Of a stretch of DNA of 64,000 bases, positions 6,512 through 60,668 are shown piece by piece; within the stretch, counting starts at the first letter, position 1; every line of letters begins with the position of its first letter. Position numbers and translations under genes: made by a program. The DNA lies in NCBI GenBank assembly GCA_903932685.1, contig CAIZGX010000058.1:634-64633 (forward strand). The letters run 5' to 3'. This stretch comes from an uncultured Bacteroidota bacterium (GTDB lineage: Bacteria; Bacteroidota; Bacteroidia; Flavobacteriales_D; Sanyastnellaceae). The notes under the pieces were generated by a model. That model was not told the origin of the DNA. It searched no databases and saw nothing but the letters and a program-made list of their open reading frames with translations.

Positions 6512-6842
6512 CCAAGAGAATATGAAGTGTCTCCATAAACTCTCGGAGTTCGTCTATTTTCTTTTTACTTGTTGCCTTACCTTGTTTTGTTAGGCGGTAG
6601 TATTTACGCTGACGCTTTCCAATGAATTCCACTTCGGTTTCCAAGTCCTCACTGGCTTCCAAAGCATGAAGCAGGGGGTACAAGGCTCCTTCCGTGATTT
6701 GTATTTTGTCGTCGGTAAGTTCCTTTACCCGTTGTGTTATTTCGTAACCATACATACGTCCGTTCTCTTTTAGCAGATTTAGAACAATGGTTCGAAGAGT
6801 GCCTTTAATTAGTTCTGATGAATACATAGGACAAATATACAT
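6474..6842 (-). CDS. PadR family transcriptional regulator
   Basis: Winged-helix PadR signature (LKGTLRTIVLNLL...MYGYEITQRV...EGALYPLLHALE). An alternative start is at 6827. Confidence 0.85.
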   Translation of the reverse strand: MYICPMYSSELIKGTLRTIVLNLLKENGRMYGYEITQRVKELTDDKIQITEGALYPLLHALEASEDLETEVEFIGKRQRKYYRLTKQGKATSKKKIDELREFMETLHILLDANKGTSHGLIN

Positions 6843-6878
6843 AAGAAACTTATGTATTTACTGTTTTATTGTTGAAAG

Positions 6879-6912
6879 CAAAAAAAAGGAGCGAATATTC
6901 GCTCCCTTTTTT
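6879..6912 (-). terminator. rho-independent terminator downstream of the S46 peptidase gene
   Basis: Perfect 18-nt palindrome GGAGCGAATATTCGCTCC (6888-6905), flanked by an A-run and a T-run. Confidence 0.6.
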
Positions 6913-6929
6913 CAAATATCTAATTTCAA

Positions 6930-9092
6930 TTAGTTTCGGGCTCCTCTCACAAACAACATTTCATCTACAATATTCTTACCGCCCATAAGCTCTTCAACAA
7001 TGAACAACACATAACGAATGTCAACTGCAATCGTCCGCTGCAAGGCCGGTTCGTATGCAATGTCTCCGCTCATAGCCTCCCAGTTGCCGTCGAAGGCAAT
7101 ACCAATCACGTTTCCGTTTGCATCCAATACAGGGCTTCCGCTGTTTCCACCGGTGATGTCAAGGTCTGCAATGAAACAAGAAGGCAATTCACCTTTCTCA
7201 TTTGCATAACGACCGAACTGTTTGTTCTGAATTTTTTGTGCCAATGCTTCTGGAACAACGAACTCTGGATTGCTGTTGTCACGCTTCTCCATAATACCTG
7301 TGGCAGTAGTGTAGAAATCATAATGAACAGCATCTGCTGGAGTGTAGTCTTTCACTTGTCCGTATGTGATACGCATGGTGCTGTTCGCATCTGGTGCGTA
7401 TTGTTTTTCCGGATTCATTTCACGAAGTCCTGCTACAAATTCACGCTGTCCTTTGCTCATCTTCTCGCGAGGAATTAGTTTTCCTAAAGCATCACCGAAT
7501 TCACCAGCGCTTTTCGCTGTTGCAACAGCAAGATCTTTTTCGAAAACCTTTTGATTTGGCTTCGCCAAGAAGTTCATCAATTTAGTTTTGTCAACGATAA
7601 CAGAAGTTGCGAAAAGTTTGTCAGCATAAGCCTGAACGTTTCCTTTGTATTTCGCATCAAGCACTGCGTGCCAAGATGGACGCGCGTTTGCTGCAATGCG
7701 AGTGCGATACAAGTTTGTTAATGCAACAAACACATCCTTGTCGGTTTGAATGTTGTATTCCACATAGAAAGCTTCAGCAGATGCTTTGAATCCATCAAGC
7801 ATCGCTTGTTTCTTCGTAGCGTCCGTTTCAGCAAAATATTTTTCGAAGGTGCGTTGGAATTCAGAAGCCAAGCCCATGAATTCTGCTCCACCCATTCCAG
7901 TTAAACGAGCATACAAAAATGCTTTTTGTGTTTCGTTGGTTGAAGAATAAAAGTCTTGCAACATCGGAAGTGACTTGCCGTATTTTTCGTTAGCTGCAGA
8001 ATTAGAAGTTAACCACTTCGTGAATCCAGCTTCAGTAGCAGCTTTCTTTCCTTCAACATCTAAACGCTTCAATCCGCGTGTTTGTCCAATGTAGTACTTC
8101 CAAGAGTTTGCAGTGCTTGCATACTTCGCAGCATACATCAAACGAACACCTTCGTTCGCATCCATGTTCTTCTTCCAAGTTTCTAATTTCAATCCGAAGC
8201 ATTCAACCAAAATTGGGTTCTGCACGTCAACCGCTTGCTCAACTCCGTAAGAGGTTAAGTAACGAGAAGTTCTTGCAGGATAACCCATGATCATTGCGAA
8301 ATCGCCTTGCTTCACACCACCCATGTTAATAGGGAAGAAGTGCTTAGGCTTCAAAGGCGTGTTGTCTTTGCTGTAATCTGCAGGCTTATTTTCAGCACCT
8401 GCATAAATACGCAACATGCTGAAGTCACCGGTGTGACGTGGCCACATCCAATTGTCTGTATCACCACCGAATTTACCAACGCTTTCAGGAGGATTACCAA
8501 CTAAGCGAATGTCGCGATACGTTTGATAAACGAATAAGTAAAATTCGTTTCCAGCGTAGAATGTTTTTACTTCAGAATTGTATAAACCGCTTTCGTTCGC
8601 AGCCTTCACCAATTCTTTGTTTCGAGCCATAATTGCAGCTTCACGTTCTGCTTCAGTCATGTTCGCATTCACAGCGCCCAATACGCTTGATGTTACATCT
8701 TCAACACGAACCAAAAAAGAAAGCGTTAAGCCTGGAATCGGAATTTCTTGATCCAATGACTTCGCACAAAATCCGTTTTGAAGAATGTTGTTTTCTAATG
8801 TTGAAGAAGACTGAATCGCATCGTATGCGCAGTGGTGATTCGTGAATACAAGGCCTTTGTCACTCACAATTTCTCCAGTGCAAAATCCTGCTCCGAAGCG
8901 AACAATAGCATCTTTCAAAGATGCTTGATTAATGTTGTAGATGTCGTCTTTGGAAAGTTTTAATCCAAGACCTTGCATTTCAGCTTCGTTAATTTTATTC
9001 AACATAGCCACCACCCACATGCCTTCCGTAGCGAACATTGCGCTTGGGACCATCATGAGCACCGTTAGTGCGAGAATGAGATTTTTTTTCAT
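6930..9092 (-). CDS. S46 family dipeptidyl-peptidase (DPP7/DPP11-like)
   Basis: 720 aa with a signal peptide, catalytic His context TNHHCAY and Ser context GGNSGSPV. Length is typical of peptidase S46. Confidence 0.85.
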   Translation of the reverse strand: MKKNLILALTVLMMVPSAMFATEGMWVVAMLNKINEAEMQGLGLKLSKDDIYNINQASLKDAIVRFGAGFCTGEIVSDKGLVFTNHHCAYDAIQSSSTLENNILQNGFCAKSLDQEIPIPGLTLSFLVRVEDVTSSVLGAVNANMTEAEREAAIMARNKELVKAANESGLYNSEVKTFYAGNEFYLFVYQTYRDIRLVGNPPESVGKFGGDTDNWMWPRHTGDFSMLRIYAGAENKPADYSKDNTPLKPKHFFPINMGGVKQGDFAMIMGYPARTSRYLTSYGVEQAVDVQNPILVECFGLKLETWKKNMDANEGVRLMYAAKYASTANSWKYYIGQTRGLKRLDVEGKKAATEAGFTKWLTSNSAANEKYGKSLPMLQDFYSSTNETQKAFLYARLTGMGGAEFMGLASEFQRTFEKYFAETDATKKQAMLDGFKASAEAFYVEYNIQTDKDVFVALTNLYRTRIAANARPSWHAVLDAKYKGNVQAYADKLFATSVIVDKTKLMNFLAKPNQKVFEKDLAVATAKSAGEFGDALGKLIPREKMSKGQREFVAGLREMNPEKQYAPDANSTMRITYGQVKDYTPADAVHYDFYTTATGIMEKRDNSNPEFVVPEALAQKIQNKQFGRYANEKGELPSCFIADLDITGGNSGSPVLDANGNVIGIAFDGNWEAMSGDIAYEPALQRTIAVDIRYVLFIVEELMGGKNIVDEMLFVRGARN

Positions 9093-9116: not shown

Positions 9117-11030
9117 TTACTTTTTCAATTTCTTTTTGTTGGCATCCAACTTCGCTTGCTGCGCCTTTTGCATTTCTTCAATGCGTGAAGCAAATCCACC
9201 TTTTTTCTTCGGTTTCTTTTTGTTCGATTCAATTTTCTCACGAATAGAATCTTCATTCACGAAGTACTTCTTTATCGCCCACATTTGACCAATAGAAATA
9301 ACGTTCGCTGTGAAGTAGTACAAGCTTAATCCAGATGGCATGCTGTTGAAGAAGAAGATCATCATGAATGAGAAGATGTTCATCATCACTTTCATGTTAG
9401 GCATTCCCGGTTGAGTCATCGTTGGCTGAGAGCCCATGCTCATCTTCGAATAAACAAACGTAGATGCAGCCATTAACAAAGTGAATCCACTCACGTGCGC
9501 TCCGTAGAACGGTACGTTGAAAGGAAGATTTAAAATGCTGTCATACGCCGCCAAATCTTCTGCCCACAAGAAACTCTTTCCACGCAAAACAATCTCTGCT
9601 GGGAAGAAGCGGAACATCGCATAAAGAATAGGCATTTGAAGCAATACAGGAATACAACCCGCAAAAGGATTCACACCAGTCTGACGGTAAAGCGCCATCG
9701 TAGCTTGTTGCTTTTCCATCGGATCTTTTCCTTCGAACTTCTTGTTAATCTCATCGATCTCAGGCTTCAAAACGCGCATCTTCGCACCGCTTAAGAAGTT
9801 CTTCCAAGTGATAGGGAAGAGGACCATCTTAATTATAATGGTCACAATTAAAATAATTAATCCGAAGGATACAATGTAATCTGAAAGGAACCAAAACAAT
9901 GGGCGAACAGCATACTTGTTTACATAGCCAATGATCCACCATCCGTAGTCAATGATGTTGGTGAACTCGGCTGCGCCGCTGGCTTCAAGCGCTTTATACT
10001 CATTCGGACCTAGGTAAAATTGGAACTCAGCTTTTGAAATTGAAGATGATTGAACGCCTTCCATGCTCTTCATTTCGAAAGTCTTTATCTTCAAAGGCAA
10101 TTCAGCGTAATATGATTTGGTGTGCTGCGAATCTGCAGGAACCATAATGCTTAGGTCTGCGTTTTTATCGAAGCCTTCGGCGCTAATAATTGCAGCAGTG
10201 AAATAATCTTGCTTCATCGCAACCCAATTCAATTCCTTCTCTGGACGCTTCTGATCGCCCGCTCCTTCGCTCAGGTAGTTACGATCTTCTTCCACTTCAC
10301 GATAGAAAATAGAAGACTTGCTACGCTCTGCTTGAATTCCTTTTTCATTTGCCAATCCGTTCAGCAACCAACGGAAAACCAGCGGCGATCCGAACATTTC
10401 ATTCTCCATCCCCTTCGCCTCGAAATTACATTTTACATTGTAAGAGTTTGGCTCAATTGAATACGTCCACTGCAATTGCGCGTTGTTGCTTCCGGTTGCT
10501 GTTAAAACCACAGTAGCAGCTCCATCTGTTGCATTTGCGTTGGTCGTTGAAGCAGTGAAATTCAATTCACTCGACAGCAAAACAGCGCCGCTGCCATTCT
10601 TCCAAGCAATGTCCATCTTGCTTTGAGCGGTATCCCAAAGCTGAACTTGATTGTCTGAATTGAATTTCTTGTAATCAGCTTCAAGTAATTCTGCTGAATG
10701 TAACAATCCTCCTTTCGAAGAAATCTTAACTCTGATTTTATTGTTGGAAAGAACCGTGTACGTCTCTAGCGCTGGCATGGCAGCTGCATCCATTGAACCG
10801 TAACGAGCTGTATTCAAAACTGCAACTTCGGTAGGTATTGAAATACCGTTGGAGGTAACAGCATTAGAGCTTTCAGGGGCCGGAGTGCTTTCGGTTTGAG
10901 CCGTTTGTTCGGTTTGTTTAGGCGCATTTGCTGCCGCTTCAGCTTTGTTCTTTGCAGAATACCAACTAAAGCCAACGGCAATAAGAAGCATTAACGAAAG
11001 TCCAATGACGGTGTTTTTATCGAATTTCAT
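9117..11030 (-). CDS. yidC: membrane protein insertase YidC (long Bacteroidota form)
   Basis: 637 aa with an N-terminal TM helix, a large periplasmic domain and the C-terminal conserved YidC core (GCIPVLLQMPILYAMF...). Confidence 0.9.
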   Translation of the reverse strand: MKFDKNTVIGLSLMLLIAVGFSWYSAKNKAEAAANAPKQTEQTAQTESTPAPESSNAVTSNGISIPTEVAVLNTARYGSMDAAAMPALETYTVLSNNKIRVKISSKGGLLHSAELLEADYKKFNSDNQVQLWDTAQSKMDIAWKNGSGAVLLSSELNFTASTTNANATDGAATVVLTATGSNNAQLQWTYSIEPNSYNVKCNFEAKGMENEMFGSPLVFRWLLNGLANEKGIQAERSKSSIFYREVEEDRNYLSEGAGDQKRPEKELNWVAMKQDYFTAAIISAEGFDKNADLSIMVPADSQHTKSYYAELPLKIKTFEMKSMEGVQSSSISKAEFQFYLGPNEYKALEASGAAEFTNIIDYGWWIIGYVNKYAVRPLFWFLSDYIVSFGLIILIVTIIIKMVLFPITWKNFLSGAKMRVLKPEIDEINKKFEGKDPMEKQQATMALYRQTGVNPFAGCIPVLLQMPILYAMFRFFPAEIVLRGKSFLWAEDLAAYDSILNLPFNVPFYGAHVSGFTLLMAASTFVYSKMSMGSQPTMTQPGMPNMKVMMNIFSFMMIFFFNSMPSGLSLYYFTANVISIGQMWAIKKYFVNEDSIREKIESNKKKPKKKGGFASRIEEMQKAQQAKLDANKKKLKK

Positions 11031-11123
11031 GTTTAGTAAATGAGGTGCAAAAGTCGGAAGTATTCATAAAACTTCCACTTTTTTTTGTGTTCACTTCAAT
11101 TAATCGTGAATTTTGCCGAAATC

Positions 11124-12122
11124 ATGAAGCTAACCCATTCAACAATAAAGTTTTTCGTTTTGCTACTATTGCTGATTGTGGTATGCCTAATCGCCCTCAT
11201 GTTGGGTAGCCAATATCTAACCTTGAATTCGTTGTTTGAAGTAAGTGAATCTCCCGCTGGTCGTGTCCTCTGGCAACACCGTCTGCCCCATGTGCTGGGT
11301 GCTTTAATTGTTGGAAGCTCACTCGCATTGAGCGGGAATTACATGCAAGTAATTTTCCGAAATCCACTTGCCGGACCTTCTGTTCTTGGTATCACCGGTG
11401 GAGCCTCATTGGCAATGGCTGTTATATTTTTAACATCTTGGGGGTTAAATTGGTTCCTCAATGCAGGAACATGGGCTTTATTTATTCCGGCTTTTGCAGG
11501 GGCAATGTTGGTTCTCTCGTTGTTACTCGTTATTCAACGAAAACTTCCCATGGCTTCAACACTGCTTGTGGTGGGTTTGCTCTTTTCGCACTTCACCGGC
11601 GCCATTGAAAGCATTCTGCAAAAAATGGCTGGAGCTAACAACGTTGCGCAGTTTGTGGTTTGGGGAATGGGTTCTTTGGATAATCTTACGTTGGCGCAAT
11701 TGCCCTGGTTGTTATTAGGAGCTTTCGTTCCCTTCATTCCGACCTTTTATTTTTTAAGGAAGTTGAACGCTTTCGCCATGGGCGAGCAGATCGCAGCCAC
11801 TTCGGGAGTAGATGTTGTGAAACTGCGCTGGGTGTTTTTGATTTCAGTTGGAATTTCCACAGCAACAATAACTGCCTTCTGTGGACCCATTGCCTTCATT
11901 GGACTCATGGCGCCGCATGTTGCCCGAATGTTCATTCGAACCTTCAATCAACTTCAACTTGTACTTTTTATTCCATTCGTCGGAGCGCTGTTGTTGGTCA
12001 TTGCCGACGCCCTTTCGCGCTATTACGCATTGCCGCTCAACGCAGTGACCGCTGCAATAGGCATTCCGTGCGTGTTTTACATTGTGTTCAACCCTAAACG
12101 AAGCGGCGTATGGATCAGCTAG
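11124..12122 (+). CDS. ABC transporter permease, FecCD/BtuC family
   Basis: Polytopic membrane protein with the FecCD family pattern (GPIAFIGLMAPHVAR). Start taken at MKLTHST (11124). Confidence 0.8.
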   Translation: MKLTHSTIKFFVLLLLLIVVCLIALMLGSQYLTLNSLFEVSESPAGRVLWQHRLPHVLGALIVGSSLALSGNYMQVIFRNPLAGPSVLGITGGASLAMAVIFLTSWGLNWFLNAGTWALFIPAFAGAMLVLSLLLVIQRKLPMASTLLVVGLLFSHFTGAIESILQKMAGANNVAQFVVWGMGSLDNLTLAQLPWLLLGAFVPFIPTFYFLRKLNAFAMGEQIAATSGVDVVKLRWVFLISVGISTATITAFCGPIAFIGLMAPHVARMFIRTFNQLQLVLFIPFVGALLLVIADALSRYYALPLNAVTAAIGIPCVFYIVFNPKRSGVWIS

Positions 12123-12724
12123 TGGTGAATGAAGTTAGCGTTGTTCGTGGAAAGAAAACAGTTCTTTCCAACTTGAACATGTCATTCTCTTTCGGAGAGT
12201 TAGTGGCCATTGAAGGAAACAACGGTTCAGGGAAATCTACTTTTTTAGATGCGCTAGCAGGAATAATTTCCCTGTCTGAAGGTAAAATTTTTATGGAAGG
12301 AAAACCACTTAGTCAGATGACTTATTCTGATCGTGCATCCTTTATTTCTTACGTCCCTTCACGGAAAACAACCGCTGCAGCTTTGGAGGTTACAACAGCG
12401 ATTGCAGTGGGAGATGTATTTGGAAAGAAGATGAGTCGGGTGGAAGAGGCCATACAGAAATTCAACTTGAATGAACTTCAAAACAATCTGCTCACTGAGT
12501 TAAGCGACGGCGAATACCAGCGTGTTCAACTCGCGCGTGCGTGGGTTCAAGACACGCCTATTGTGCTGCTAGATGAGCCTGCTGCGCATCTAGACGCCAC
12601 GTCCCGCGAGAATTTATTTGCTGAATTGTTGAAGTGGGCCGAAGGCGATAATAAATTAGTTATCGTATGTTCCCACGAATTGCATTTGAACAAGCAGTTC
12701 GCTTCAAGAATTATTCAATTCTAA
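12110..12724 (+). CDS. ABC transporter ATP-binding protein
   Basis: Walker A (GNNGSGKST), signature (LSDGEYQR) and Walker B (VLLDEP). It overlaps the permease gene by 13 nt. Confidence 0.8.
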   Translation: MDQLVVNEVSVVRGKKTVLSNLNMSFSFGELVAIEGNNGSGKSTFLDALAGIISLSEGKIFMEGKPLSQMTYSDRASFISYVPSRKTTAAALEVTTAIAVGDVFGKKMSRVEEAIQKFNLNELQNNLLTELSDGEYQRVQLARAWVQDTPIVLLDEPAAHLDATSRENLFAELLKWAEGDNKLVIVCSHELHLNKQFASRIIQF

Positions 12725-12791
12725 TATTGAGCAATATTTGAGGCTTGAATCTGTTTCACAAAGACTTATTTTTACAAAAAATTATTAGACC

Positions 12792-14414
12792 ATGAAAAGA
12801 AGGCTAACCCTTTTCTTCGCGCTTTGTGCGTTTGTTTCTTTCTCTCAATCGAAGAGCGTTACTGCTCCAATTACTGATGTAACATTATTCTTGAGCGGTG
12901 CGCAAGTGACGCACAGGGGTGATGTAAACCTGAGGAAGGGGGAGAATACCCTTGTTCTATCTGGACTTACAGCCGGCATGGATGTTAACTCTATTCAGAT
13001 TTTAGGAAATAAGGATTACACAATCCTAAGTGTGAAGCATCAGATGAATTACACCTCGAAGGTTTCAAATACCCGCGTGCGTGCCATTCAGGACAGCATT
13101 AAACTTTTGGGTTTCCAAACTTCTGAACGCGCAAGTTTACGCGCTGTGTATCAGGAAGAAAAAGCGTTCTTGCAAGCGAATCGCTCAATTAAAGGAGACA
13201 ATGCGTTGCTTATTCGCGAGGACCTTTCCGAAATGGCAGACTTCTACAGAAGCCGCATGAAGGAAATTGAATACAAGATTTTAGACTTGAATCAGACCGA
13301 TCGTGAGAACAACGAAAAGCTTCAGCATTTACAAACACAGCTTTCGCAACTGCAATCACAAAACGTAACCAATCCGGGTGAAATTGAATTTGTCGTAACC
13401 ACCGATGAAGACAAGAGAGCAGATGTGGTGATTATCTATTTGGCAACCAATGCGGGCTGGACGCCCTACTACGACTTGCGTGCTGAAGACATTGAGTCTG
13501 ATATCGAATTCACCTATCGCGCGAAAGTGTGGCAAGGCACAGGCGCAGATTGGAAGCGTGTGAACTTGACCATTTCAACGGGTAATCCGAATGTGGGTGC
13601 GCAAGTTCCAGCATTGAATCCGTGGTACTTGAACATTTACGCTCCTCAAGCCTACCGCGGTAGAGCGAAGGCCGATGCGTATGGGTATGACGATCTTCAA
13701 AAACCTGCGGCCATGGCATCCGGGTATTTTGCTGAAATGGACAAATCATCTCGGGCAATGAATAGCATGCAAACGTCTGCTTCTTTCACAACAATTACAT
13801 CTAATTCAGTGAGCACTGAATTTAAAATTTCCATTAAATACGACATCGCTAGTGACAACCAGCCGGTTGAAGTGGTGATGCAAAAGCAACGCTTGAAAGC
13901 CTCTTATAAATACGTCGCAATTCCTAAATTGGAAGCAGCTGCATACTTACAAGCTGACATTATCGATTGGATGCAGTACAGCTTATTAAGCGGTGAAAGT
14001 AACATTTACTTCAAAGGAACATTTGTTGGAAACGGATACATAGACCCAGCTTTGGCGAACGATACGCTTCAATTGTCATTGGGACGCGACAACGCCATTA
14101 CCGTGAAACGCGATCAAGTGAAAGACTTCTGCAAGACCAGTGTTTTCGGCGTGAAGAAATCTACCTCTAAGGCCTATGAAATTACCATCGTGAACACGAA
14201 GAAGAAAGCAATCAATATTGAAGTCTACGACCAAGTTCCACTTACACAGAATGCAGATTTGGAAGTGGCAGTGGAAGAGCTTTCAGGAGCTACGCAAGAC
14301 ATTGCCACTGGTAAAGTAACGTGGAAGATGACCGTTGAACCCGAGAAGACAGAGAAGCGTCAATTACGATTCACGGTGAAATATCCGAAGAAGAATCTGA
14401 TTCAGAACTTGTAA
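12792..14414 (+). CDS. secreted DUF4139-like protein (mucoidy-inhibitor MuiA-like family)
   Basis: 540 aa with a signal peptide. The N-terminal ITDVTLFLSGAQV and a central coiled coil resemble the DUF4140/DUF4139 architecture. Family assignment is from memory only. Confidence 0.5.
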   Translation: MKRRLTLFFALCAFVSFSQSKSVTAPITDVTLFLSGAQVTHRGDVNLRKGENTLVLSGLTAGMDVNSIQILGNKDYTILSVKHQMNYTSKVSNTRVRAIQDSIKLLGFQTSERASLRAVYQEEKAFLQANRSIKGDNALLIREDLSEMADFYRSRMKEIEYKILDLNQTDRENNEKLQHLQTQLSQLQSQNVTNPGEIEFVVTTDEDKRADVVIIYLATNAGWTPYYDLRAEDIESDIEFTYRAKVWQGTGADWKRVNLTISTGNPNVGAQVPALNPWYLNIYAPQAYRGRAKADAYGYDDLQKPAAMASGYFAEMDKSSRAMNSMQTSASFTTITSNSVSTEFKISIKYDIASDNQPVEVVMQKQRLKASYKYVAIPKLEAAAYLQADIIDWMQYSLLSGESNIYFKGTFVGNGYIDPALANDTLQLSLGRDNAITVKRDQVKDFCKTSVFGVKKSTSKAYEITIVNTKKKAINIEVYDQVPLTQNADLEVAVEELSGATQDIATGKVTWKMTVEPEKTEKRQLRFTVKYPKKNLIQNL

Positions 14415-19239: not shown

Positions 19240-19587
19240 ATGCCACGCAGTAAAAACGCAGTCGCCAGTAGAGCCAGAAGAAGAAAAGTTCTTAAAATGG
19301 CAAAAGGTTATTTCGGTTCACGTAAAAACGTTTGGACAGTAGCCAAAAACTCAGTAGAAAAAGCATTATGCTATGCTTACATCGGACGTAAACTTCGCAA
19401 GCGCGATTTCCGTTCTTTGTGGATTGCTCGTATCAACGCCGGTGCTCGTCAGCACGGAATGTCATACAGCGCATTCATGGGTCAAATTCACGCACATGGA
19501 GTTGAATTGAATCGTAAGGTTCTTGCAGACTTAGCAATGAATCACCCAGAAGCGTTCAAAGCAGTAGCAGAGCGTGTAAAAAAATAA
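19240..19587 (+). CDS. rplT: 50S ribosomal protein L20
   Basis: 115 aa, [26 protein letters not shown].... Confidence 0.95.
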
Positions 19588-19610
19588 TTTCTAGCAATAG
19601 AAATAAGAAA

Positions 19611-19636
19611 AGCCCTCTTCGGAGGGCTTTTTTTTG
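19611..19636 (+). terminator. rho-independent terminator after rplT
   Basis: AGCCCTC-TTCG-GAGGGCT hairpin (19611-19628) followed by a T-run. Confidence 0.7.
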
Positions 19637-19644
19637 CTTCGCAA

Positions 19645-19752
19645 AAATGTCTGCGACTAATGTGCAAGCACGAATGCCGATGGCTAATGTCTACGACGAA
19701 TGTCTGCGACTAATGTGCAAGCACGAATGCCGTTGGCGAATGTCTTTCAGAC
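19645..19752 (+). repeat. mini-hairpin string, NAAT-linker family (8 hairpins, 53-bp higher-order repeat)
   Basis: The sequence reads GTC-TGC-GAC TAAT GTGC-AA-GCAC GAAT GCC-GAT-GGC TAAT GTC-TAC-GAC GAAT, then the block restarts at 19702 and ends with GTCT-TTC-AGAC at 19742-19752. Confidence 0.8.
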
Positions 19753-19825
19753 TATACGTCTTTTGACGAATAATGCATAACTCATTTGGAAGCTTCAGTG
19801 TGGTATGTATATATTTATTTATTGA

Positions 19826-20488
19826 ATGAAAAACACTTTTCTCTTTATGTCGCTGATGCTTTTTTCCACATTCGGATTTGCGCAGGACACCCTTCAAACA
19901 CCTTTGGAATTCGTTCAGGAAATGCCAACATACCCTGGAGGGCAAGATGCTATGTTTGAAGTGATCTTTGATCACTTAGTCTACCCAGAATATGAGAAAT
20001 CGATGAACATTGAGGGCACCGTTTTAATTCAATTTATTATTGAAAAAGATGGTACACCAACGAACTTCAAGGTTTTTCGTGGTGTTACGGATGGCTCGGG
20101 ATTGGACAGTGCGGCGCTTATGGCATGTAAACAACTGGGGAAGTTTAACCCGGGAAAACAGGACGATATTCCTCAACGAGTTTATTCTGGAATGCCAATA
20201 AAGTTTTCTTTGGCCGACGACGAAGAGCCAACGGAGGAAAGATTGAGTAAAGCAGATTTGAAAGAGATAAAAAAAGATGCGAAATACATCTGCGATATGA
20301 TGTCTCAAATAGAGGAAGCGCGAAGAGCCAACGACCAACTTAAAATTGATAGTTTAACTGCAGAGTTTGACGCAGTAGCAGCAGTCCTTCAAAAGAAATA
20401 CCCTAAAAACAGCGTTAGAGAAGATTATCTCGAAGACCTAGTTAAACCTTGCCTTGAAGAAGCCAGGAAAGCCGCAATGGGGCAGTAG
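19826..20488 (+). CDS. secreted TonB C-terminal domain protein with one C-terminal two-Cys helical module
   Basis: Signal peptide plus a TonB_C-like domain (PTYPGGQDAMFEVIFDHLVYPEYEKSMNIEGTVLIQFIIEKDGT). The C-terminal module is LKEIKKDAKYIC...KKYPKNS...LVKPCLEEA. Confidence 0.7.
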   Translation: MKNTFLFMSLMLFSTFGFAQDTLQTPLEFVQEMPTYPGGQDAMFEVIFDHLVYPEYEKSMNIEGTVLIQFIIEKDGTPTNFKVFRGVTDGSGLDSAALMACKQLGKFNPGKQDDIPQRVYSGMPIKFSLADDEEPTEERLSKADLKEIKKDAKYICDMMSQIEEARRANDQLKIDSLTAEFDAVAAVLQKKYPKNSVREDYLEDLVKPCLEEARKAAMGQ

Positions 20489-20509
20489 TTCTTTTCAAAA
20501 AAAAAACAT

Positions 20510-21457
20510 ATGATTAAAAGGACTTTTCTGTTTGTTGCTTTTGTAGCGATTCAAATGCTTTCCGCTGCGCAGGCCGACACCGCAATGTTTCCGCTTCCAA
20601 AGGATTATCCAAAATATCCAGCAGGAAAAGAAGCCTTGAATGCCTTCATTCAACAAAACATCGTCTACCCCGAATACGAAAAATCAATGGGCATTGAAGG
20701 GACGGTAGTTGTTTACTGCGATGTAGAATTAGATGGTACACTGAGTAATTTTAGAATAGGGTCAACAGTTGAAGGTTCGGTTGGGTTTGATGCCGAGGCC
20801 ATTCGTGTCTGTCAGAAATTAGGCAAGTTTACTCCGTGCATGCGAAACGGTAAGCCACTTTGCTTCATAATTGATATCGATGTGAAATTCGATTTGAATA
20901 ATGGAGACGAGATGGAAATGGCCATAGCGAAATTGAGCAATCAGGAGTTAAAGGAAATTGAGAAAGATGCAAAATGGTTTTGTGATTATTTAGCGAAAAC
21001 TACAGAGCCCCGAAGAGTTGGCGATGAAGATAAATTAGCGAAATTAACGAGCAAGTATCAGAAAGAATTAGATGTTTTAGAAGATAAATACCCAGGGAAA
21101 AGCCCGAAGAGCGTTCAATTTGAAAGATTGACCAAGCCCTGCATGGATGACATGTTCAAAAGAATGGGCATCGTGGATACCGACGGTGATGGTCTCTTTA
21201 CAAAAGAAGAAGCAGAATTGACTGCAAAGGAGCTTAAGCAAATAGAGAAAGATGCGAAGTATTTCTGCTCCTTGTTTAACGAAACAATAAGTGCGAAATT
21301 TAATGGCGATACGAAAAAAGTCGAAAGACTAAAAAAAGACTTAGAAATGAAGACCGCTGCGTTGCAAAAGAAATATCCAAAGGGTAGTAAAGCGGAAAAA
21401 AAGTTTGAAGACCTAGTCTTGCCCTGCCTCAAAGAGGCGATGAATCGCTCAAAATAA
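20510..21457 (+). CDS. secreted TonB C-terminal domain protein with two C-terminal two-Cys helical modules (paralog of the previous gene)
   Basis: Signal peptide plus a TonB_C-like domain (YPKYPAGKEALNAFIQQNIVYPEYEKSMGIEGTVVVYCDVELDGT). The module LKEIEKDAKWFC...KYPGKS...LTKPCMDD occurs twice. Confidence 0.7.
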   Translation: MIKRTFLFVAFVAIQMLSAAQADTAMFPLPKDYPKYPAGKEALNAFIQQNIVYPEYEKSMGIEGTVVVYCDVELDGTLSNFRIGSTVEGSVGFDAEAIRVCQKLGKFTPCMRNGKPLCFIIDIDVKFDLNNGDEMEMAIAKLSNQELKEIEKDAKWFCDYLAKTTEPRRVGDEDKLAKLTSKYQKELDVLEDKYPGKSPKSVQFERLTKPCMDDMFKRMGIVDTDGDGLFTKEEAELTAKELKQIEKDAKYFCSLFNETISAKFNGDTKKVERLKKDLEMKTAALQKKYPKGSKAEKKFEDLVLPCLKEAMNRSK

Positions 21458-21474: not shown

Positions 21475-21596
21475 TTCATCCTTCAAAGAAGGTCATCACG
21501 AAGTGTCATCACAATGTGTTGTGTCATCACGACCTGTCGTGTCATCGGCTACGCCGTCATCCAGCTTCGCTGGTAATCACAACTTGTTGTGTAGTT
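21475..21596 (+). repeat. mini-hairpin string, TCAT-linker (GTCATC core) family, array A
   Basis: Perfect GTCATC at 21492, 21505, 21523, 21541 and 21556. Degenerate copies are TTCATC (21475), GTAATC (21573) and GTAGTT (21591). All 7 intervening words are self-complementary. Confidence 0.85.
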
Positions 21597-33807: not shown

Positions 33808-34347
33808 ATGGCAAAAAAAATCACCTTGATCAATGGCGGACTGCTGAATATGATCATTCAAAGGTTGTGTCGTCAATTAATCGAAAATCACAAGGACTTT
33901 TCTTCAACCATACTTATCGGACTTCAGCCGCGGGGCGTGTTTTTTTCTGAGCGAATTGTTGAGGAGTTAGCAAAATCGGGACACCAAGTGAAATGGGGAA
34001 TTGTAGACCCAACTTTTTATCGCGACGATTTTAGAATTCACGACAAGCCCCTCCTAGCCAAGTCTACAGATATGAAGCACAGTGTTGAAGGAATGAATGT
34101 GGTTTTAATCGACGATGTGTTATTTACAGGTAGAACTATTCGAGCGGGTATGGAAGGACTTATGGAGTACGGAAGACCCAAATCAGTCGAATTGTTGGTG
34201 CTCATAGACCGAAAGAAGGGAAGAGAAGTGCCTATTGAAGCCACTTATATCGGAAAAGAAGTAGAGAGTTTCGACAATCAACGTGTAAGAGTTATGTGGA
34301 AGAGTGAAGGGGAAAAGGAAGATCATGTAATTTTTTTGAACGACTAA
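33808..34347 (+). CDS. pyrR: bifunctional pyr operon regulator / uracil phosphoribosyltransferase PyrR
   Basis: PRPP-binding motif VVLIDDVLFTGRTIRA. It lies immediately upstream of pyrB. Start taken at the ATG at 33808. Confidence 0.9.
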   Translation: MAKKITLINGGLLNMIIQRLCRQLIENHKDFSSTILIGLQPRGVFFSERIVEELAKSGHQVKWGIVDPTFYRDDFRIHDKPLLAKSTDMKHSVEGMNVVLIDDVLFTGRTIRAGMEGLMEYGRPKSVELLVLIDRKKGREVPIEATYIGKEVESFDNQRVRVMWKSEGEKEDHVIFLND

Positions 34348-34348
34348 C

Positions 34349-43463: not shown

Positions 43464-44532
43464 TAACACGACACGAAACTTTGGACTCGATTTATTTCGA
43501 GCGTTGGCCATTGTGTTGGTTGTGTTGTCTCACGGAAAATTTTTGTTGAATGGAACGGTTCTAGAGAATTTTCCGTTCGTGAAAATGCTCGACGGCGTTG
43601 ATTTGTTTTTCGTGTTAAGCGGATTTTTAATTGGCGGAATTTTATTGAAGTCCTCTTCTGAAGGATTGAATTGGCGAGGCATTGCGCACTTTTGGAAGAG
43701 AAGATGGTTGCGCACTTTGCCGAATTATTATTTGATCTTGTTCTTGAATTTCATTTTCATTTCTTGTGGAATTATTTCCGGAGACTTAACTGTTTTCGGT
43801 TGGAAGTTTATTGTATTCCTTCAAAATTTCACAAAGCCGCTCATTGGATTTTTCTGGGAGTCGTGGAGCTTGGCAGTTGAGGAGTGGTTCTACATTTTTA
43901 CTCCAGTTATGCTTTGGGGACTACTGAAAGTGTTTCGATTGAAATGGGCTTATCTCATTGCAACGCTTGTAATGATTGCTGTTCCCTTGATCTATCGCGC
44001 TTATTCCTTTGATTCGAAGCTCGACGATTTCTGGTTCGATGTGCAGGTCCGAAAGATTGTGGTCTTTCGACTCGATGCTATTGCATTCGGATTGTTGCTC
44101 GCCTGGATTTGTTCTTTCCATAAAGATCTTTGGGACAAGTGGAAAAACGTAGGGCTTGTTTTGGGTTTGGCAATAGTTTTATTCTTGTTGAATAACAGCG
44201 CTTCCAACGCAACTTTTTATCGTCAAGTATTTTATTTCAGCATAACACCTTTCGCTATAGCACTTATCCTTCCTTGGTTTGAAGGGATTACTTCTTCATG
44301 GAAGCGCTTGGTAAGTGCCGTGACGCACATCAGTAAGATTTCGTATTCGATGTATTTAATTAACCTTGCGCTCGTTGCCCAAGTCATCGGATTGAATTTT
44401 CCTGTTCAAGGAAATGCAGATGGGATAATGAAGTACGTTGCCTATTGGTTTATTGTGATTACAGTCTCTTCGGCGCTTTACTACTTTGTGGAAAGACCGA
44501 TTCTTCGGTGGAGAGATGACGCTTCGCGATGA
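43456..44532 (+). CDS. acyltransferase family 3 membrane protein (OafA-like)
   Basis: N-terminal GLDLFRALAIVLVVLSH and about 10 TM helices. The last five codons and the stop lie inside hairpin array B. Confidence 0.75.
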   Translation: MNNNTTRNFGLDLFRALAIVLVVLSHGKFLLNGTVLENFPFVKMLDGVDLFFVLSGFLIGGILLKSSSEGLNWRGIAHFWKRRWLRTLPNYYLILFLNFIFISCGIISGDLTVFGWKFIVFLQNFTKPLIGFFWESWSLAVEEWFYIFTPVMLWGLLKVFRLKWAYLIATLVMIAVPLIYRAYSFDSKLDDFWFDVQVRKIVVFRLDAIAFGLLLAWICSFHKDLWDKWKNVGLVLGLAIVLFLLNNSASNATFYRQVFYFSITPFAIALILPWFEGITSSWKRLVSAVTHISKISYSMYLINLALVAQVIGLNFPVQGNADGIMKYVAYWFIVITVSSALYYFVERPILRWRDDASR

Positions 44533-44631
44533 CGCAACGCGTTGCGATGACACAACACGACGTGATGACAATCTGCGATTGATGACCACTTCGTGGATGA
44601 CGGCGAAGCCGATGACCGCGCAGCGGATTAA
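44515..44631 (-). repeat. mini-hairpin string, GTCATC family, array B (inverted orientation)
   Basis: GATGAC on the + strand at 44515, 44528, 44546, 44564, 44581, 44596 and 44611, with a degenerate GATTAA at 44626. Six of 7 words are self-complementary. Confidence 0.85.
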
Positions 44632-45647
44632 TGAATGTGGTTTGCGATGTTACGTGCGATGGAAGGACCTTCGTAGATGAAGCCCGTGTATACTTGAACA
44701 AGGGAAGCACCTGCATCTATTTTTTCTTGCGCATTTTGTGAAGTGTGAATTCCTCCAACGCCAATGATTGGAAATGCGCCGTTCGATTTTGAATGCAAAT
44801 AGCGAATCACATCGGTTGAACGCGCACGCACAGGAGCTCCGCTCAATCCGCCCATTCCAATGCTTTGAATGGTTTGTGTACTCGTTTGCAAATTCTCTCT
44901 TGAAATGGTTGTGTTCGTTGCAATGACTCCCGCAATTTTTGTTTGAAGAACAATTTCAACAATGTCATTCAATTGATCGTCTGTTAAATCCGGAGCAATT
45001 TTTAAAAAGATTGGACGCGGTTTTGGGAAGGTGTTATTTGTTTCAGCAAGAGCAGAAAGAATTTTCATTAATGGCTCTTTCTCTTGCAACTCGCGTAAAC
45101 CCGGTGTATTCGGAGAGCTTACATTCACCACGAAATAATCTACACAATCGTGAAGGGCATTCAAACAAATTAAATAATCACTCAACGCATCTTCATTCGG
45201 AGTGATTTTATTCTTTCCGATATTTCCTCCAACAATAATATTTGATTTTCGTTTTCTCAAGCGTACTGCAGCGTCTTCAACCCCACCGTTATTAAATCCC
45301 ATGCGATTAATCAACCCATTATCTAACGGAAGTCTGAATAATCGTGGTTTGTCATTTCCAGGTTGTGCCTTCGGAGTAAGCGTTCCGATTTCCACATGTC
45401 CGAATCCTAACAATGCCAACTCATCTATCCAACGCGCATCCTTATCAAACCCAGCAGCCAATCCCACCTTATTGGGAAATTCAATTCCTGCTACAACAAT
45501 CTTGTTTTCTTTCGCTTTGAAAATTGATTTTAAAATCATTTTTCCTCCAGGCATTCTTGAAGAAAATTTCAATAAATCCATGGCCAAGTAATGCGCCTTC
45601 TCCGGAGAAAAAAGAAAAAAGAAAGGTTTAATCAGAAGCTTATACAT
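44628..45647 (-). CDS. pyrD: dihydroorotate dehydrogenase (quinone), class 2
   Basis: [18 protein letters not shown] and GVGGI motifs. Start taken at [11 protein letters not shown] (45647). Confidence 0.9.
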
Positions 45648-45661
45648 GCTGCAAAAATACA

Positions 45662-45892
45662 GCATCTCATCCATCAATCGTAGATTGTCATCACCTTCGG
45701 TGTCATCCGCTCCGCGGTCATCGGCTTCGCCGTCATCAATCGCAGATTGTCATCACCTTCGGTGTCATCCGCTCCGCGGTCATCGGCTTCGCCGTCATCA
45801 ATCGCAGATTGTCATCACCTTCGGTGTCATCGCAACGCGTTGCGTCATCGCGAAGCGTCATCCGCTCCGCGGTCATCCACGAAGTGGTAATG
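45662..45892 (+). repeat. mini-hairpin string, GTCATC family, array C (largest, with a 62-bp higher-order repeat)
   Basis: 13 perfect GTCATC cores between 45687 and 45877. The 14 intervening or flanking words are all self-complementary. Blocks 45687-45748 and 45749-45810 are identical. Confidence 0.9.
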
Positions 45893-46547: not shown

Positions 46548-46656
46548 CACGCGTGGCGATGACAATCTTCGATTGATGACGGCAAGGCCGATGACACAAC
46601 ACGTTGTGATGACACTTTCAGTGATGACCTCTTCGCGTATGACACTTCGTGATTAA
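46548..46656 (-). repeat. mini-hairpin string, GTCATC family, array D (inverted orientation)
   Basis: Opens with the palindrome CACGCGTG (46548-46555). GATGAC at 46558, 46575, 46590, 46608 and 46623, then TATGAC (46638) and GATTAA (46651). Confidence 0.8.
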
Positions 46657-58048: not shown

Positions 58049-58196
58049 CTCATCACAACGTGTGGTGTCATCCGCTCCGCGGTCATCGGCTTCGCCGTCA
58101 TCAATCTCCGATTGTCATCACCTTCGGTGTCATCGGCTTTGCCGTCATCCACGAAGTGGTCATCAATCTCCGATTGTCATCCGCTCCGCGGTATTG
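58049..58196 (+). repeat. mini-hairpin string, GTCATC family, array E
   Basis: Perfect GTCATC at 58067, 58082, 58097, 58114, 58129, 58144, 58159 and 58176. Degenerate copies are CTCATC (58049) and GTATTG (58191). Eight of 9 words are self-complementary. Confidence 0.85.
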
Positions 58197-60557: not shown

Positions 60558-60668
60558 GTCTCATTCTCATTCTGTTTCTCTAACTCATTCAGATTCTCTT
60601 TCCCATTCTGTTTCTCATACTCATTCAGATTCTCTTTCCCATTCTGTTTCTCATACTCATTCTGAATT
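60558..60668. repeat. 36-bp tandem repeat (2 full copies plus partial copies on both sides)
   Basis: ACTCATTCAGATTCTCTTTCCCATTCTGTTTCTCAT at 60583-60618 is repeated exactly at 60619-60654. There are partial copies at 60558-60582 and 60655-60668. Confidence 0.85.

Follow-up and report, generated by a model that had tools for sequence, protein, structure and literature searches.

Behind the rplT gene of an uncultured Bacteroidota bacterium, in a 64,000-nucleotide stretch of DNA that we refer to as the window, lies a run of very short hairpins joined by a recurring tetranucleotide. Is this run a local accident of one genome or one array of a family of repeats, and what could keep its hairpins intact? 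We re-read the letters from 19645 to 19752 and confirmed the arrangement put forward in the original prediction, namely eight mini-hairpins, each clamped by G...C, with TAAT or GAAT as linkers. The tag before every one of the eight units is AAAT, TAAT or GAAT (the KAAT family). The chance expectation for such an array is zero; the two-unit pattern gave 6 matches in the window versus 0.00 expected from 100 shuffles.

The KAAT string behind rplT

The features of this region are as follows.

19605..19634, + strand: rplT intrinsic terminator, AAAAGCCCTC-TTCG-GAGGGCTTTTTTTT, an inverted repeat that the scan marked as a terminator-like site, conserved in L001-L010
19634..19648, + strand: leading unit, a T...A-clamped hairpin TTGCTTCGCAA (19634-19644) with an AAAT tag
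19645..19752, + strand: KAAT string of 8 mini-hairpins (9-11 nt; 3-4-bp stem, 2-4-nt loop)
19649-19657: unit 1, GTCTGCGAC
19662-19671: unit 2, GTGCAAGCAC
19676-19684: unit 3, GCCGATGGC
19689-19697: unit 4, GTCTACGAC
19702-19710: unit 5, GTCTGCGAC again
19715-19724: unit 6, GTGCAAGCAC again
19729-19737: unit 7, GCCGTTGGC
19742-19752: unit 8, GTCTTTCAGAC
19646-19698 and 19699-19751, + strand: 53-bp higher-order tandem repeat, a strain-specific block duplication
19753..19772, + strand: degenerate string tail, TATA, CGTCTTTTGACG and AATA, the end conserved in L009 and L010
19826-20488: TonB_C gene downstream of the string

The whole string is somewhat longer than first described, with the TTGCTTCGCAA hairpin in front and the degenerate tail behind; the leading word is also present in a TTGA-family string of L012. 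The string begins at the T-run of the rplT terminator, a canonical one, and its first position lies 47 nt past the rplT stop. Each of the six distinct words is also found in KAAT strings of other genomes. The 53-bp higher-order repeat proposed earlier is real: 19646-19692 and 19699-19745 are 96% identical over 47 nt, and identity falls to 46/53 over the full unit because unit 4 is not the same in both copies. The window string is found again in an independent assembly (L001), and variant strings in L009 and L010 lack the 53-bp duplication in the window's form. The 53-bp repeat is an ordinary strain-specific tandem duplication within an older string.

RNA nearest-neighbour energies of the window hairpins are weak, from -0.7 to -2.8 kcal/mol. 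The fold of the whole region was better than that of shuffles (z = -3.7 on the + strand and -4.2 on the - strand), which says little about the mini-hairpins because the predicted structure pairs the repeated blocks with each other. The energy contrast between the strands gave nothing useful in nearest-neighbour models, which have no special triloop terms. With Rfam 15 at the gathering score, a tRNA was the sole match in the whole window, and an E-value search of 19550-19850 returned sub-threshold matches that all fell on the rplT terminator. Little read-through into the string is expected because the canonical terminator precedes it. Since the string lies behind this strong terminator and ahead of the likely promoter of the next gene, it is probably a tolerated passenger and not an element needed for rplT expression.

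Families of strings, their spread and their position

The window contains one KAAT string and five TCAT (GTCATC) strings. The suggestion that the KAAT string is a second family built like the GTCATC arrays was borne out: both consist of 13-17-nt units strung directly, with a constant 4-nt linker and closing pair and with a higher-order repeat, and the likeness extends to the near-perfect stems and strand-dependent loops described below. The other features of interest in the window are listed here.

21476..21580, + strand: TCAT string between the converging 3' ends of a second TonB_C gene and a GH20 gene
44516..44626, - strand: TCAT string (GATGAC on the + strand) that abuts the 3' end of the inverted DHODH (dihydroorotate dehydrogenase) gene; left inversion boundary
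44546..45722, no strand assigned: segment with the DHODH gene, inverted relative to congeners (blastn against L273, L274, L275 and L277)
45675..45887, + strand: TCAT string of 14 units with a 62-bp higher-order repeat; right inversion boundary
46548..46627, - strand: TCAT string between a converging 183-aa gene and S41 peptidase gene
58050..58191, + strand: TCAT string between the divergent EutBC and Smr genes
60559..60664, - strand: GAATG-linked purine-rich non-hairpin units (CATTC on the + strand), just past a tRNA and its terminator

Strings occupy 6 of the roughly 10 large intergenic gaps in the window, beside unrelated housekeeping genes, and no common function was apparent among their window neighbours. 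An apparent gap at 33857-34349 proved to be a phosphoribosyltransferase-like (PyrR-like) ORF missed by a crude gene caller. Terminator-like and sigma-70 promoter sites in our scans did not exceed shuffle expectation, and the canonical terminator scan gave no terminator-like site at or next to the TCAT strings. Three congeners were free of strings over the 10 kb upstream of the window. GAATG-linked purine-rich non-hairpin units also occur upstream of strings in other genomes.

A de novo search for 4-nt tags in 411 kb of lineage DNA retrieved only GAAT (35 strings, 128 units), TCAT (15 strings, 78 units) and TTGA (3 strings, 9 units), and 411 kb of shuffled lineage DNA gave no string of three or more units with any 4-nt linker. 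The lineage uses at least six tags (KAAT, TCAT, TTGA, GGAAT, CCAAC and GAGG), and a seventh, CYTC, is found in a more distant relative. The tags beyond the two families first described are therefore TTGA, the longer GGAAT, CCAAC and GAGG, and CYTC. A scan with the two-unit KAAT pattern, which covered one genome per species, detected at least 117 loci. Among the matches listed, 33 loci hold strings of at least three perfect hairpins, all but 2 of them from freshwater Flavobacteriales, Crocinitomicaceae or Bacteroidota MAGs, and, again among the matches listed, a single MAG has up to 7 KAAT-string contigs. The vocabulary of words is common to many genomes: GTGCAAGCAC was seen at least 17 times and, like GTCTGCGAC, GCCGATGGC and others, turns up in numerous freshwater Flavobacteriales MAGs at loci that are not related to each other. 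Dozens of unrelated loci in several genera have one tag and one vocabulary in common. KAAT and GTCATC pattern scans of IMG/VR viral contigs yielded only monotonous tandem or coding repeats and no mixed-word strings. The 3' flank of DHODH in another genus also holds a hairpin string, with a different tag.

These data bear directly on the simplest alternative, that the array is a mere local tandem duplication of a chance hairpin-rich stretch, or an assembly artefact. The 53-bp block is indeed a simple local duplication, as in the refuting case named with the original prediction, and the 64-kb window has only one KAAT string; the other half of that case, that such arrays would be absent elsewhere, did not hold, for KAAT strings recur at many unrelated loci in many related genomes. 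The same words form strings at dozens of loci in independent MAGs and samples, the identical string is present in L001 with variants in L009 and L010, and shuffled DNA has none. We regard this alternative as hardly credible and as refuted by the congener strings and the pattern scan across genomes. The strings are apparently an undescribed repeat family located just 3' of genes in an uncultured group of freshwater Flavobacteriales.

The KAAT strings fall into 15 convergent, 21 co-directional (16 sense, 5 antisense) and 1 divergent intergenic regions, against a baseline of 46 convergent, 139 co-directional and 44 divergent (p ~0.002), where some loci are orthologous and the independent cases are fewer than the raw counts. 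Of the 15 convergent strings, 13 directly adjoin the stop codon of the neighbouring gene that is read in the same sense. Most strings either overlap the stop codon of the upstream gene or begin within 0-16 nt of it, with linkers of 4 nt, and a TAATG or TGAATG at the stop codon is often where the first unit falls. The TCAT string at 46548..46627, for example, is sense to the S41 peptidase gene and begins at its stop codon. The orientation is not absolute, given the 5 antisense KAAT strings in co-directional gaps and, for TCAT, two window strings in divergent gaps and one antisense string in L273/L274. These results show that strings are mostly found in the 3' flanks of genes, usually sense to the upstream gene and starting at or over its stop codon; the positional bias, which the earlier reading had asked about, is the same in both families.

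Perfect stems, drifting loops and change between strains

Each unit consists of an unpaired 4-nt tag and a perfect palindrome of 9-15 nt, for a whole unit of 13-17 nt (13, 14, 15 or 17 nt). The closing pair of the palindrome is fixed (G...C), and the loop is usually 3 nt long. We collected 93 distinct KAAT words and 45 distinct TCAT words. Watson-Crick pairs were found at 366 of 374 stem positions in the KAAT words, with G-U pairs at none of the 374, and at 190 of 194 positions in the TCAT words. Selected RNA helices without G-U pairs are unusual. The KAAT covariation score was 0.60 compared with 0.215 in shuffles (none of 500 as high), and stem changes were two-sided in 28 cases and one-sided in none. 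Some words with a single mismatch are intermediates between two observed words, as GCCCGAAGGAC is between GCCCGAAGGGC and GTCCGAAGGAC.

The loops behave in another way and are strand-specific. In KAAT words, TGC was counted 15 times versus 1 for GCA, GTT 14 versus 0 for AAC, GGA 12 versus 0 for TCC, and CAAG 21 versus 0 for CTTG; in TCAT words, GAA was counted 10 times versus 2 for TTC. By our own tally of loop counts, about 47% of triloops are G-N-A or its complement closed by C-G, versus 12.5% at random. The resulting C(GNA)G motif is present in words such as CGCGAAGCG, CGGCGAAGCCG and CCGCGGAGCGG, and is missing from many others, e.g. GTGCAAGCAC and GCCGTTGGC. A terminal unit, GTCTTCGAC, is conserved in about 20 of 45 strings. 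In addition, a six-word string recurs at a non-homologous locus with 95% identity, and 5 of the 5 differences are in loops, for which we estimate a chance of ~4e-4 if differences were evenly spread. Within the words compared, stems are thus shown to be held in Watson-Crick pairing by changes on both sides, and loops to drift.

The site after rplT varies widely among ten congeners: some have a KAAT string of 4-12 units there, others a TCAT string of 4-13 units, and others almost nothing. In L009, the words GTCCGAAGGAC and GTGCTTCGCAC appear where the window has none, and no adjacent source is present. A filled site (L025, L032 and L080) could be compared with its empty counterpart (L028), and the difference is a fuzzy swap of 15 nt for ~125 nt with no target duplication. 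In L080, a block that includes the rare TAAT tag has been copied from one string to another, and copy number and block duplications vary among close strains. Three-word runs shared between strings were at about the chance level for a small vocabulary, except in the L025/L028 case. Taken together, the comparisons of orthologous and unrelated sites show change by tandem block duplication, block copying between loci, and gain or loss of whole strings.

Inversion is a further outcome. Both ends of the DHODH inversion, as read from the junction sequences, fall inside the two oppositely oriented TCAT strings at 44516..44626 and 45675..45887. On this sequence evidence, oppositely oriented strings are shown to recombine, and in the window such TCAT strings bound an inverted DHODH gene. 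The 183-aa protein encoded beside the DHODH strings had no Pfam hit and is not related to the RayT-like protein discussed below.

Known repeats and possible explanations

We compared the strings with known systems. REPs are tagged palindromes that mostly occupy the 3' side of genes, in gaps where the neighbouring ORFs are unidirectional or convergent, and transcription of many of them is plausible (PMC3733652). The strings have several traits in common with REP/BIME elements (PMC3733652): the units are palindromes outside genes and carry an unpaired tetranucleotide tag at one end, several families can be present in one genome, and both are substrates for recombination and differ between strains; they also share the position downstream of genes with unidirectional or convergent ORFs (p ~0.002). 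Unlike the 20-40-bp imperfect palindromes of REPs, the strings are made of 13-17-nt units with perfect 9-15-nt palindromes; their stems are heterogeneous (93 KAAT words) where REP stems follow a family-specific consensus; and their tags are KAAT, TCAT, TTGA and others instead of GTAG or CGTC. They run head-to-tail for up to 14 units, whereas REPs form head-to-head or tail-to-tail dimers and alternate in BIMEs. REP/BIME elements typically accompany a RAYT gene flanked by repeats, and at the loci covered we found no such flanked gene for the strings.

Other systems match in single respects. Hairpin clusters near stop codons have been proposed as intrinsic terminators (Gupta and Pal 2021, PMC8355165), and, like the strings, their hairpins are <15 nt apart, lie near the stop codon (within ~80 nt) and require no U-tract (PMC8355165). 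Such clusters usually comprise two hairpins and not up to 14, however, and have no constant linker, shared vocabulary or dispersed family; termination at the strings is only putative. C(GNA)G DNA mini-hairpins, of the d(GCGNAGC) type, are unusually stable, exceeding their RNA counterparts, and ~47% of string triloops fit them (PMC13037366), but the motif describes how isolated hairpins behave physically (phage origins, the N4 promoter) and is not a dispersed tandem repeat. The repeated hairpins of MAEB, and likewise of CsrB, have been proposed to be protein-binding RNA; MAEB and CsrB/RsmZ resemble the strings in having a variable number of consecutive similar hairpins, there with a protein that is proposed or known to bind once to every unit (PMC1950547). 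These RNAs conserve the hairpin sequence or a loop motif and lie in 5' regions or separate sRNA genes, whereas the strings conserve the linker, lie 3' of genes and have no Rfam match. TAACTGA heptamer repeats are intergenic in cyanobacteria, Beggiatoaceae and some Bacteroidetes, and, like the strings, are lineage-restricted, abundant, short tandem repeats beside coding regions (PMC4679880); unlike the strings, they have no hairpin units and lie mostly just upstream of start codons. A simple VNTR or minisatellite has near-identical units head-to-tail and a copy number that depends on the strain; copy number and block duplications do vary in the strings, while the units within a string are different words that recur at unrelated loci. 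We rejected a CRISPR/TIGR-type guide array, as the constant part is 4-6 nt (not at least 23), the variable part is a 9-15-nt palindrome from a shared vocabulary and the neighbours are housekeeping genes. An iteron-like or coding-repeat reading was rejected on unit size, variable unit length and neighbouring genes. An IS200/IS605-derived or MITE-like element fits poorly, as the filled and empty sites show neither a clean insertion nor a duplication and no Y1 transposase lies near strings in the ~1 Mb searched.

The reading that we favour, at about even confidence, is that the window string is a local array of a lineage-wide, REP/BIME-like repeat that is miniature, head-to-tail and divided by tag into several families. 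The constraint would then act on a folding single strand, either the transcribed 3' flank or single-stranded DNA. In an RNA version, the hairpin cluster could serve termination or 3'-end protection, as proposed for REPs; the weak hairpin energies, the lack of G-U pairs and the position of the window string past a canonical terminator argue against an RNA role. A single-stranded-DNA version is possible too, given how many words have the form of the C(GNA)G mini-hairpin DNA motif. Local growth may proceed through slippage on the microhomology of tag plus clamp, and spread to new loci would require some copying mechanism.

We searched for an enzyme that could mobilise the strings. A phmmer search with IS200 TnpA and E. 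coli YafM as queries, run on every ORF of the cellular loci studied, gave no Y1 protein in the neighbourhood of the strings, which is weak evidence because the loci amount to only ~1 Mb. Some congeners (L280) encode a RayT-like Y1 protein that scored 27.6 bits against Pfam Y1_Tnp, above the cut-off of 23, and 60 bits against NCBIfam REP_Tyr_transpos, below the cut-off of 80. Its gene occupies one fixed locus, where it has no flanking strings, and is missing there in the window, L278 and L279. Homologues with 50% identity outside the genus lie inside type I or type IIG restriction-modification operons, with no strings nearby. On the loci covered, we rejected a link between the RayT-like gene and the strings. 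The original prediction had envisaged a general mechanism with at least two specificities and asked about two paralogous proteins that recognise hairpins; the sole candidate that came to light is this Y1 protein, unflanked by strings, and neither idea gained support.

Could the units themselves be mobile? Tag-hairpin units or short blocks might be cut and pasted as single-stranded DNA by an HUH/Y1 (RAYT- or IS200-like) enzyme, and insertion beside a unit's own tag would build head-to-tail, mixed-word strings, with tags as specificities. A tag next to a hairpin with a fixed closing pair resembles the substrates of Y1 enzymes and REPs (PMC3733652), and this reading is consistent with words common genome-wide and across genera, the L009 words without an adjacent source, the L080 block copied with its rare TAAT tag, first units on TAATG or TGAATG at stop codons, C(GNA)G mini-hairpins in many loops and the presence of a RayT-like Y1 protein in the genus. 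That protein's gene is unflanked and missing from the window site, though, its homologues are embedded in restriction-modification operons, and no Y1 protein turned up in ~1 Mb around strings. Moreover, the filled and empty sites differ by a fuzzy replacement instead of a clean insertion behind a tag, in many cases a block has simply been duplicated next to itself, and three-word runs are shared near chance. We think unit mobility rather unlikely. Its strongest form, in which a tag-hairpin unit or short block is the smallest known insertable DNA module, copied as single-stranded DNA and placed beside its own tag, we hold distinctly unlikely. There the tag would be both address and part of the cargo, strings would assemble themselves at TAATG or TGAATG seeds that resemble stop codons, and each tag (KAAT, TCAT, TTGA, GAGG and others) would define its own specificity, with either a dedicated hairpin-binding enzyme or IS608-like, DNA-guided recognition as the reader. 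Alternatively, the strings may be a neutral, self-propagating minisatellite without function or enzyme, in which short hairpins between direct repeats promote replication slippage and so the duplication of units, templated quasi-palindrome correction (snap-back copying) keeps stems perfect and selection merely clears strings from where they are harmful (coding regions, promoters). Templated correction of this kind predicts perfect stems, no G-T pairs and only two-sided changes, and the intermediate GCCCGAAGGAC, the copy-number and block differences among close strains, the many arbitrary tags side by side, the orthologous sites without strings at no visible cost and the strings in 6 of ~10 large window gaps beside unrelated housekeeping genes all agree with it. 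It leaves unexplained one tag and vocabulary at dozens of unrelated loci in several genera, the sense polarity and attachment to one particular gene's stop codon, the conserved terminal unit, the strand-specific loops and the 5 of 5 inter-locus differences in loops; we rate it as unlikely. A purely RNA-level element appears very improbable. Here the string would be a 3'-UTR platform that, like CsrB, RsmZ or MAEB, shows a single-stranded tag (GAAU, UCAU or UUGA) to an RNA-binding protein or RNase, a different protein for each tag. Sense orientation with onset at the stop codon, conserved tags beside freely varying hairpins, GAATG tags that also link non-hairpin purine-rich units (60559-60664, and upstream of strings elsewhere), the DHODH 3' flank that keeps a hairpin string under another tag in another genus, and the proposed protein binding of repeated hairpins (PMC1950547) point this way. 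They are set against C-G-closed G-N-A triloops, a DNA signature whose RNA versions are much less stable (PMC13037366), and against the absence of G-U pairs and Rfam matches, the orthologous sites that do without strings, the window string behind a terminator and flanking genes with no common function.

If the favoured reading of a lineage-wide repeat is true, most of the larger intergenic gaps in an abundant group of lake bacteria are due to a kind of repeat not described before. The strings would be a clean natural case of stems kept by two-sided changes without G-U pairs, and would allow the upkeep of a short palindromic repeat to be tested, whether through RNA, single-stranded DNA or templated correction. 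To our knowledge, the same question is still unsettled for REPs, forty years on. The strings could also serve as hypervariable markers for strain discrimination. As recombination substrates they invert genes, and they flank a variable set of TonB_C genes. Some strings sit near MAG contig ends, which suggests that strings break short-read assemblies. Gene callers are misled as well: DHODH was called at lengths from 339 to 401 aa, because its ORFs run on into the string.

The KAAT string behind rplT

Re-reading of the sequence confirmed the eight G...C palindromes split by AAAT, TAAT or GAAT that had been claimed at 19645-19752; we call such a head-to-tail series of mini-hairpins (words) joined by the tag TAAT or GAAT a KAAT string. 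The 53-bp repeat that had been described is real (19646-19692 versus 19699-19745, 96% identity); over the full 53 nt, 46 of 53 positions match, because the fourth unit differs between the copies. Repeat finders returned a 13-nt period together with the 53-bp higher-order repeat, and the two-unit KAAT pattern matched six times against 0.00 expected. The string is slightly longer than first described, being extended at both ends.

Features at the KAAT string of the window
19605-19634, intrinsic terminator of rplT, at whose T-run the string starts
19634-19648, leading unit, a T...A-clamped hairpin (TTGCTTCGCAA) followed by AAAT
19753-19772, degenerate tail (TATA, CGTCTTTTGACG, AATA)
19826-20488, TonB_C gene, about 55 nt before which the string stops

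The gene order upstream is thrS-infC-rpmI-rplT. An Rfam search at the string gave sub-threshold matches only, all of them on the terminator. Because the string sits behind a strong terminator, its location suggests a tolerated passenger.

The exact rplT protein was found on contigs of ten congeners (L001-L010, from lake metagenomes and MAGs) with a DNA identity to the window of 85-94%. The terminator is conserved among them, and the sequence directly 3' of it differs; some carry strings of the same design with the tag TCAT (GTCATC, which reads GATGAC in the opposite orientation).

Sequence after the rplT terminator in congeners
L001, KAAT string identical to that of the window
L009, longer KAAT string of about 11-12 units with the extra words GTCCGAAGGAC and GTGCTTCGCAC
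L010, shorter KAAT string with GTCTATGAC
L003, L004, L005, L006 and L008, 3-4 GATGAC units, then 4-13 GTCATC units, with 46-bp block duplications
L002 and L007, a single GATGAC...GTCATC pair only

The 3' end of the KAAT string at this site (GCCGTTGGC, GTCTTTCAGAC and the tail) is kept, whereas its 5' and middle portions differ between strains. From rplT to GH20, each strain has zero to four TonB_C-like genes (window 19826-21457; L001-L010, about 10350-13700), and both ends of this variable block carry strings; next to rplT these are KAAT or GATGAC/GTCATC, and next to GH20 they are TCAT or TTGA. TTGA is a third tag, found with T...A-clamped hairpins in the distal string of L001 and L003.

Tag families, dispersal and hairpin anatomy

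In a scan of a single genome from each species, at least 117 loci had two KAAT units in a row. Among the matches listed, 33 of 117 loci had strings of at least three perfect hairpins. Freshwater MAGs accounted for 31 of these 33; their labels were Flavobacteriales, Crocinitomicaceae or Bacteroidota, and a few bear plainly wrong species names. Up to seven string contigs came from a single MAG. The two exceptional loci are plain tandem repeats. None of the listed loci was homologous to the window, and all six words of the window string were found again in their strings. The commonest word overall among the listed matches was GTGCAAGCAC, with 17 occurrences in an unfiltered count. Such strings are thus dispersed.

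To judge by the names that its close homologues bear, the window belongs to an uncultured lineage of freshwater Flavobacteriales. We searched 411 kb of DNA from this lineage de novo, with any 4-nt linker allowed.

Tags recovered de novo
GAAT, 35 strings, 128 units
TCAT, 15 strings, 78 units
TTGA, 3 strings, 9 units
GAGG (strand pair GAGG/CCTC), 1 string, 4 units

Shuffled DNA gave no strings and no units with any linker. The core of the original interpretation, several families under one shared design, was borne out. Further, longer tags were GGAAT, CCAAC and GAGG, the first joined to T...A hairpins, the second to AACGNAGTT and the third to G...C hairpins. At 5010-5100 of L275, a more distant relative (74% identity in dihydroorotate dehydrogenase, DHODH), the 3' flank of the DHODH gene carries a CYTC-tagged string (CCTC or CTTC, then GTAACGTAGTTAC, GTTTCAAAGAAAC and GCAAAGCCTTTTGC); this flank thus retains a hairpin string though the tag family switches. 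Just after a tRNA terminator, at 60559-60664 of the window (minus strand), GAATG links purine-rich non-hairpin units (GAGTATGAGAAACA, GGGAAAGAGAATCT), so the tag is not tied to hairpins alone. Repeats of the GGTAAGAGAAGG type lie upstream of KAAT strings in L022, L060, L089, L092 and L098. The viral contigs scanned held monotonous repeats only.

The stems of the words are under constraint. Of the 374 stem positions predicted in 93 distinct KAAT words, 366 were Watson-Crick; no mismatch was G-T and five were A-C. Among the 11-nt words (33 distinct ones), 97.7% of cells were paired, the covariation score was 0.60 versus 0.215 in shuffles (reached by 0 of 500), and all 28 varying cells had changed on both sides. 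TCAT words behaved as KAAT words did (190 of 194 stem positions Watson-Crick). We infer that it is a folded single strand that is constrained, be this single-stranded DNA or RNA from the 3' flank. All five transition-type mismatches were C-A on the KAAT strand (G-T on the complement) and none was G-T on the KAAT strand, an asymmetry that speaks for the complementary strand or for biased mutation, although the sample is too small for a conclusion.

Loops are mostly 3 nt long, and their sequence is strand-specific: in KAAT words TGC occurred 15 times versus once for GCA, GTT 14 versus 0 for AAC, GGA 12 versus 0 for TCC and CAAG 21 versus 0 for CTTG, and in TCAT words GAA occurred 10 times versus twice for TTC. 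By a tally of loop counts, nearly half of the triloops were G-N-A or its complement, closed by C-G, the 'mini-hairpin DNA' motif whose DNA form is far stabler than RNA (PMC13037366). In standard energy models the window hairpins were weak (-0.7 to -2.8 kcal/mol). A terminal unit, GAAT-GTCTTCGAC, was common to about 20 of 45 KAAT strings. In other genera the order of modules in the 3' flank is fixed (L013 7187-7420, L055 4027-4190, L088 6067-6270, L098 3590-3760): a KAAT string ending in GTCTTCGAC, then AACAACGNAGTTCC and/or AATTAYGNAGTAGG units, and last, usually, a terminator-like hairpin, AAAACCGAAGGTTTT.

Position relative to genes and modes of change

The strings are biased in position. 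KAAT strings lay in 15 convergent, 21 co-directional and 1 divergent intergenic regions versus 46, 139 and 44 baseline regions of the same loci (p ~0.002). Of the strings in co-directional gaps, 16 were sense and 5 antisense (p = 0.027), and in 13 of the 15 convergent gaps the string adjoined the stop codon of its sense gene (p = 0.007). Some of the loci counted are orthologous, which leaves fewer independent cases than these figures show. Two strings in one convergent gap, as found in L070, face each other. This pairing and the sense bias argue that polarity tracks the adjacent gene, not the direction of replication. Exceptions were two TCAT strings of the window in divergent gaps and one antisense string in L273/L274. 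In the window, strings occupied 6 of about 10 intergenic gaps longer than 90 nt, next to unrelated housekeeping genes.

The stop codon is where a string starts. It may serve as the first tag (TAATG or TGAATG), lie within the first hairpin's loop (GTCC-TAAA-GGAC, GTTG-AATAA-CAAC) or, in other cases, supply the closing G. Attachment to stop codons and sense polarity speak for RNA, or else for seeding at tags that resemble stop codons, whereas the DNA-type triloops and the missing G-U pairs speak for DNA.

Gene callers ran the N-terminus of DHODH into the adjacent string (window 45600-45700; proteins P0001-P0011 and P0121-P0161), the product being called at 339-401 aa in close relatives, whereas distant homologues have about 337-340 aa. 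Contigs of some MAGs, L080 for example, stop inside or near strings.

Strings change by local block duplication; examples are the 53-bp repeat of the window KAAT string, one of 62 bp at 45675-45887, and blocks of 46 bp in both L004 and L008. They are also gained or lost. A KAAT string lies between two convergent genes in L025, L032 and L080, its first unit replacing the last codons of the upstream gene and providing the stop codon; L028 has only 6 nt at this site, though it is 92.6% identical to L080 over 2.3 kb. Finally, they are copied between loci. The six words of this same string recur at a non-homologous locus in L028 with 95% identity over 95 nt, above that of the flanking genes (84-87%), and all five differences between the copies fall in loops; L080 likewise has two strings with a common three-word block that includes a rare TAAT tag. 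Local growth may occur by slippage on tag-plus-clamp microhomology, and some copying process would spread the strings.

Compared with L273, L274 and L275, the last of them more distant, window segment 44546-45722 with the DHODH gene is inverted and its flanks are collinear; L277 has the arrangement of the window. The inversion ends inside two oppositely oriented TCAT strings (44516-44626 and 45675-45887), and thus strings serve as inverted repeats for recombination.

Known systems and the search for a protein partner

A literature search found no description of such tag-plus-hairpin strings. The closest known things are REP/BIME elements, tagged palindromes downstream of genes, between unidirectional and convergent ORFs; they are plausibly transcribed, and a genome has several families of them (PMC3733652). 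Also close are clusters of hairpins that have been proposed to be terminators (PMC8355165). However, the strings differ from REP in unit size, and they have no conserved stem sequence, head-to-head or tail-to-tail pairing, GTAG/CGTC tags or flanked RAYT gene. Because these defining features are missing, the strings are probably new, REP-like in working but not members of REP.

In one congener, a 183-aa protein encoded between S46 peptidase and PadR genes (L280 16661-17212) passed Pfam Y1_Tnp (27.6 bits versus a cut-off of 23), and its best NCBIfam match was 'REP-associated tyrosine transposase', with 60 bits where the cut-off is 80. Close copies of this RayT-like Y1 (HUH) gene were always at this one locus (L280 and L281-L286), from which the gene is absent in the window (6842-6930), L278 and L279. 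The flanks of the gene that we inspected held no strings, and a direct search of the cellular loci analysed found no IS200- or RAYT-like proteins; thus, no enzyme could be linked to the strings. Relatives with 50% identity in other taxa, which had no strings nearby, belong to restriction-modification operons of types I and IIG, where they lie between hsdS and hsdR or overlap the final part of a gene for an MmeI/Eco57I-like enzyme. The RayT-like gene itself belongs to a segment of about 0.8 kb that some strains have and others lack, and that stands in place of the terminator of the S46 peptidase gene.
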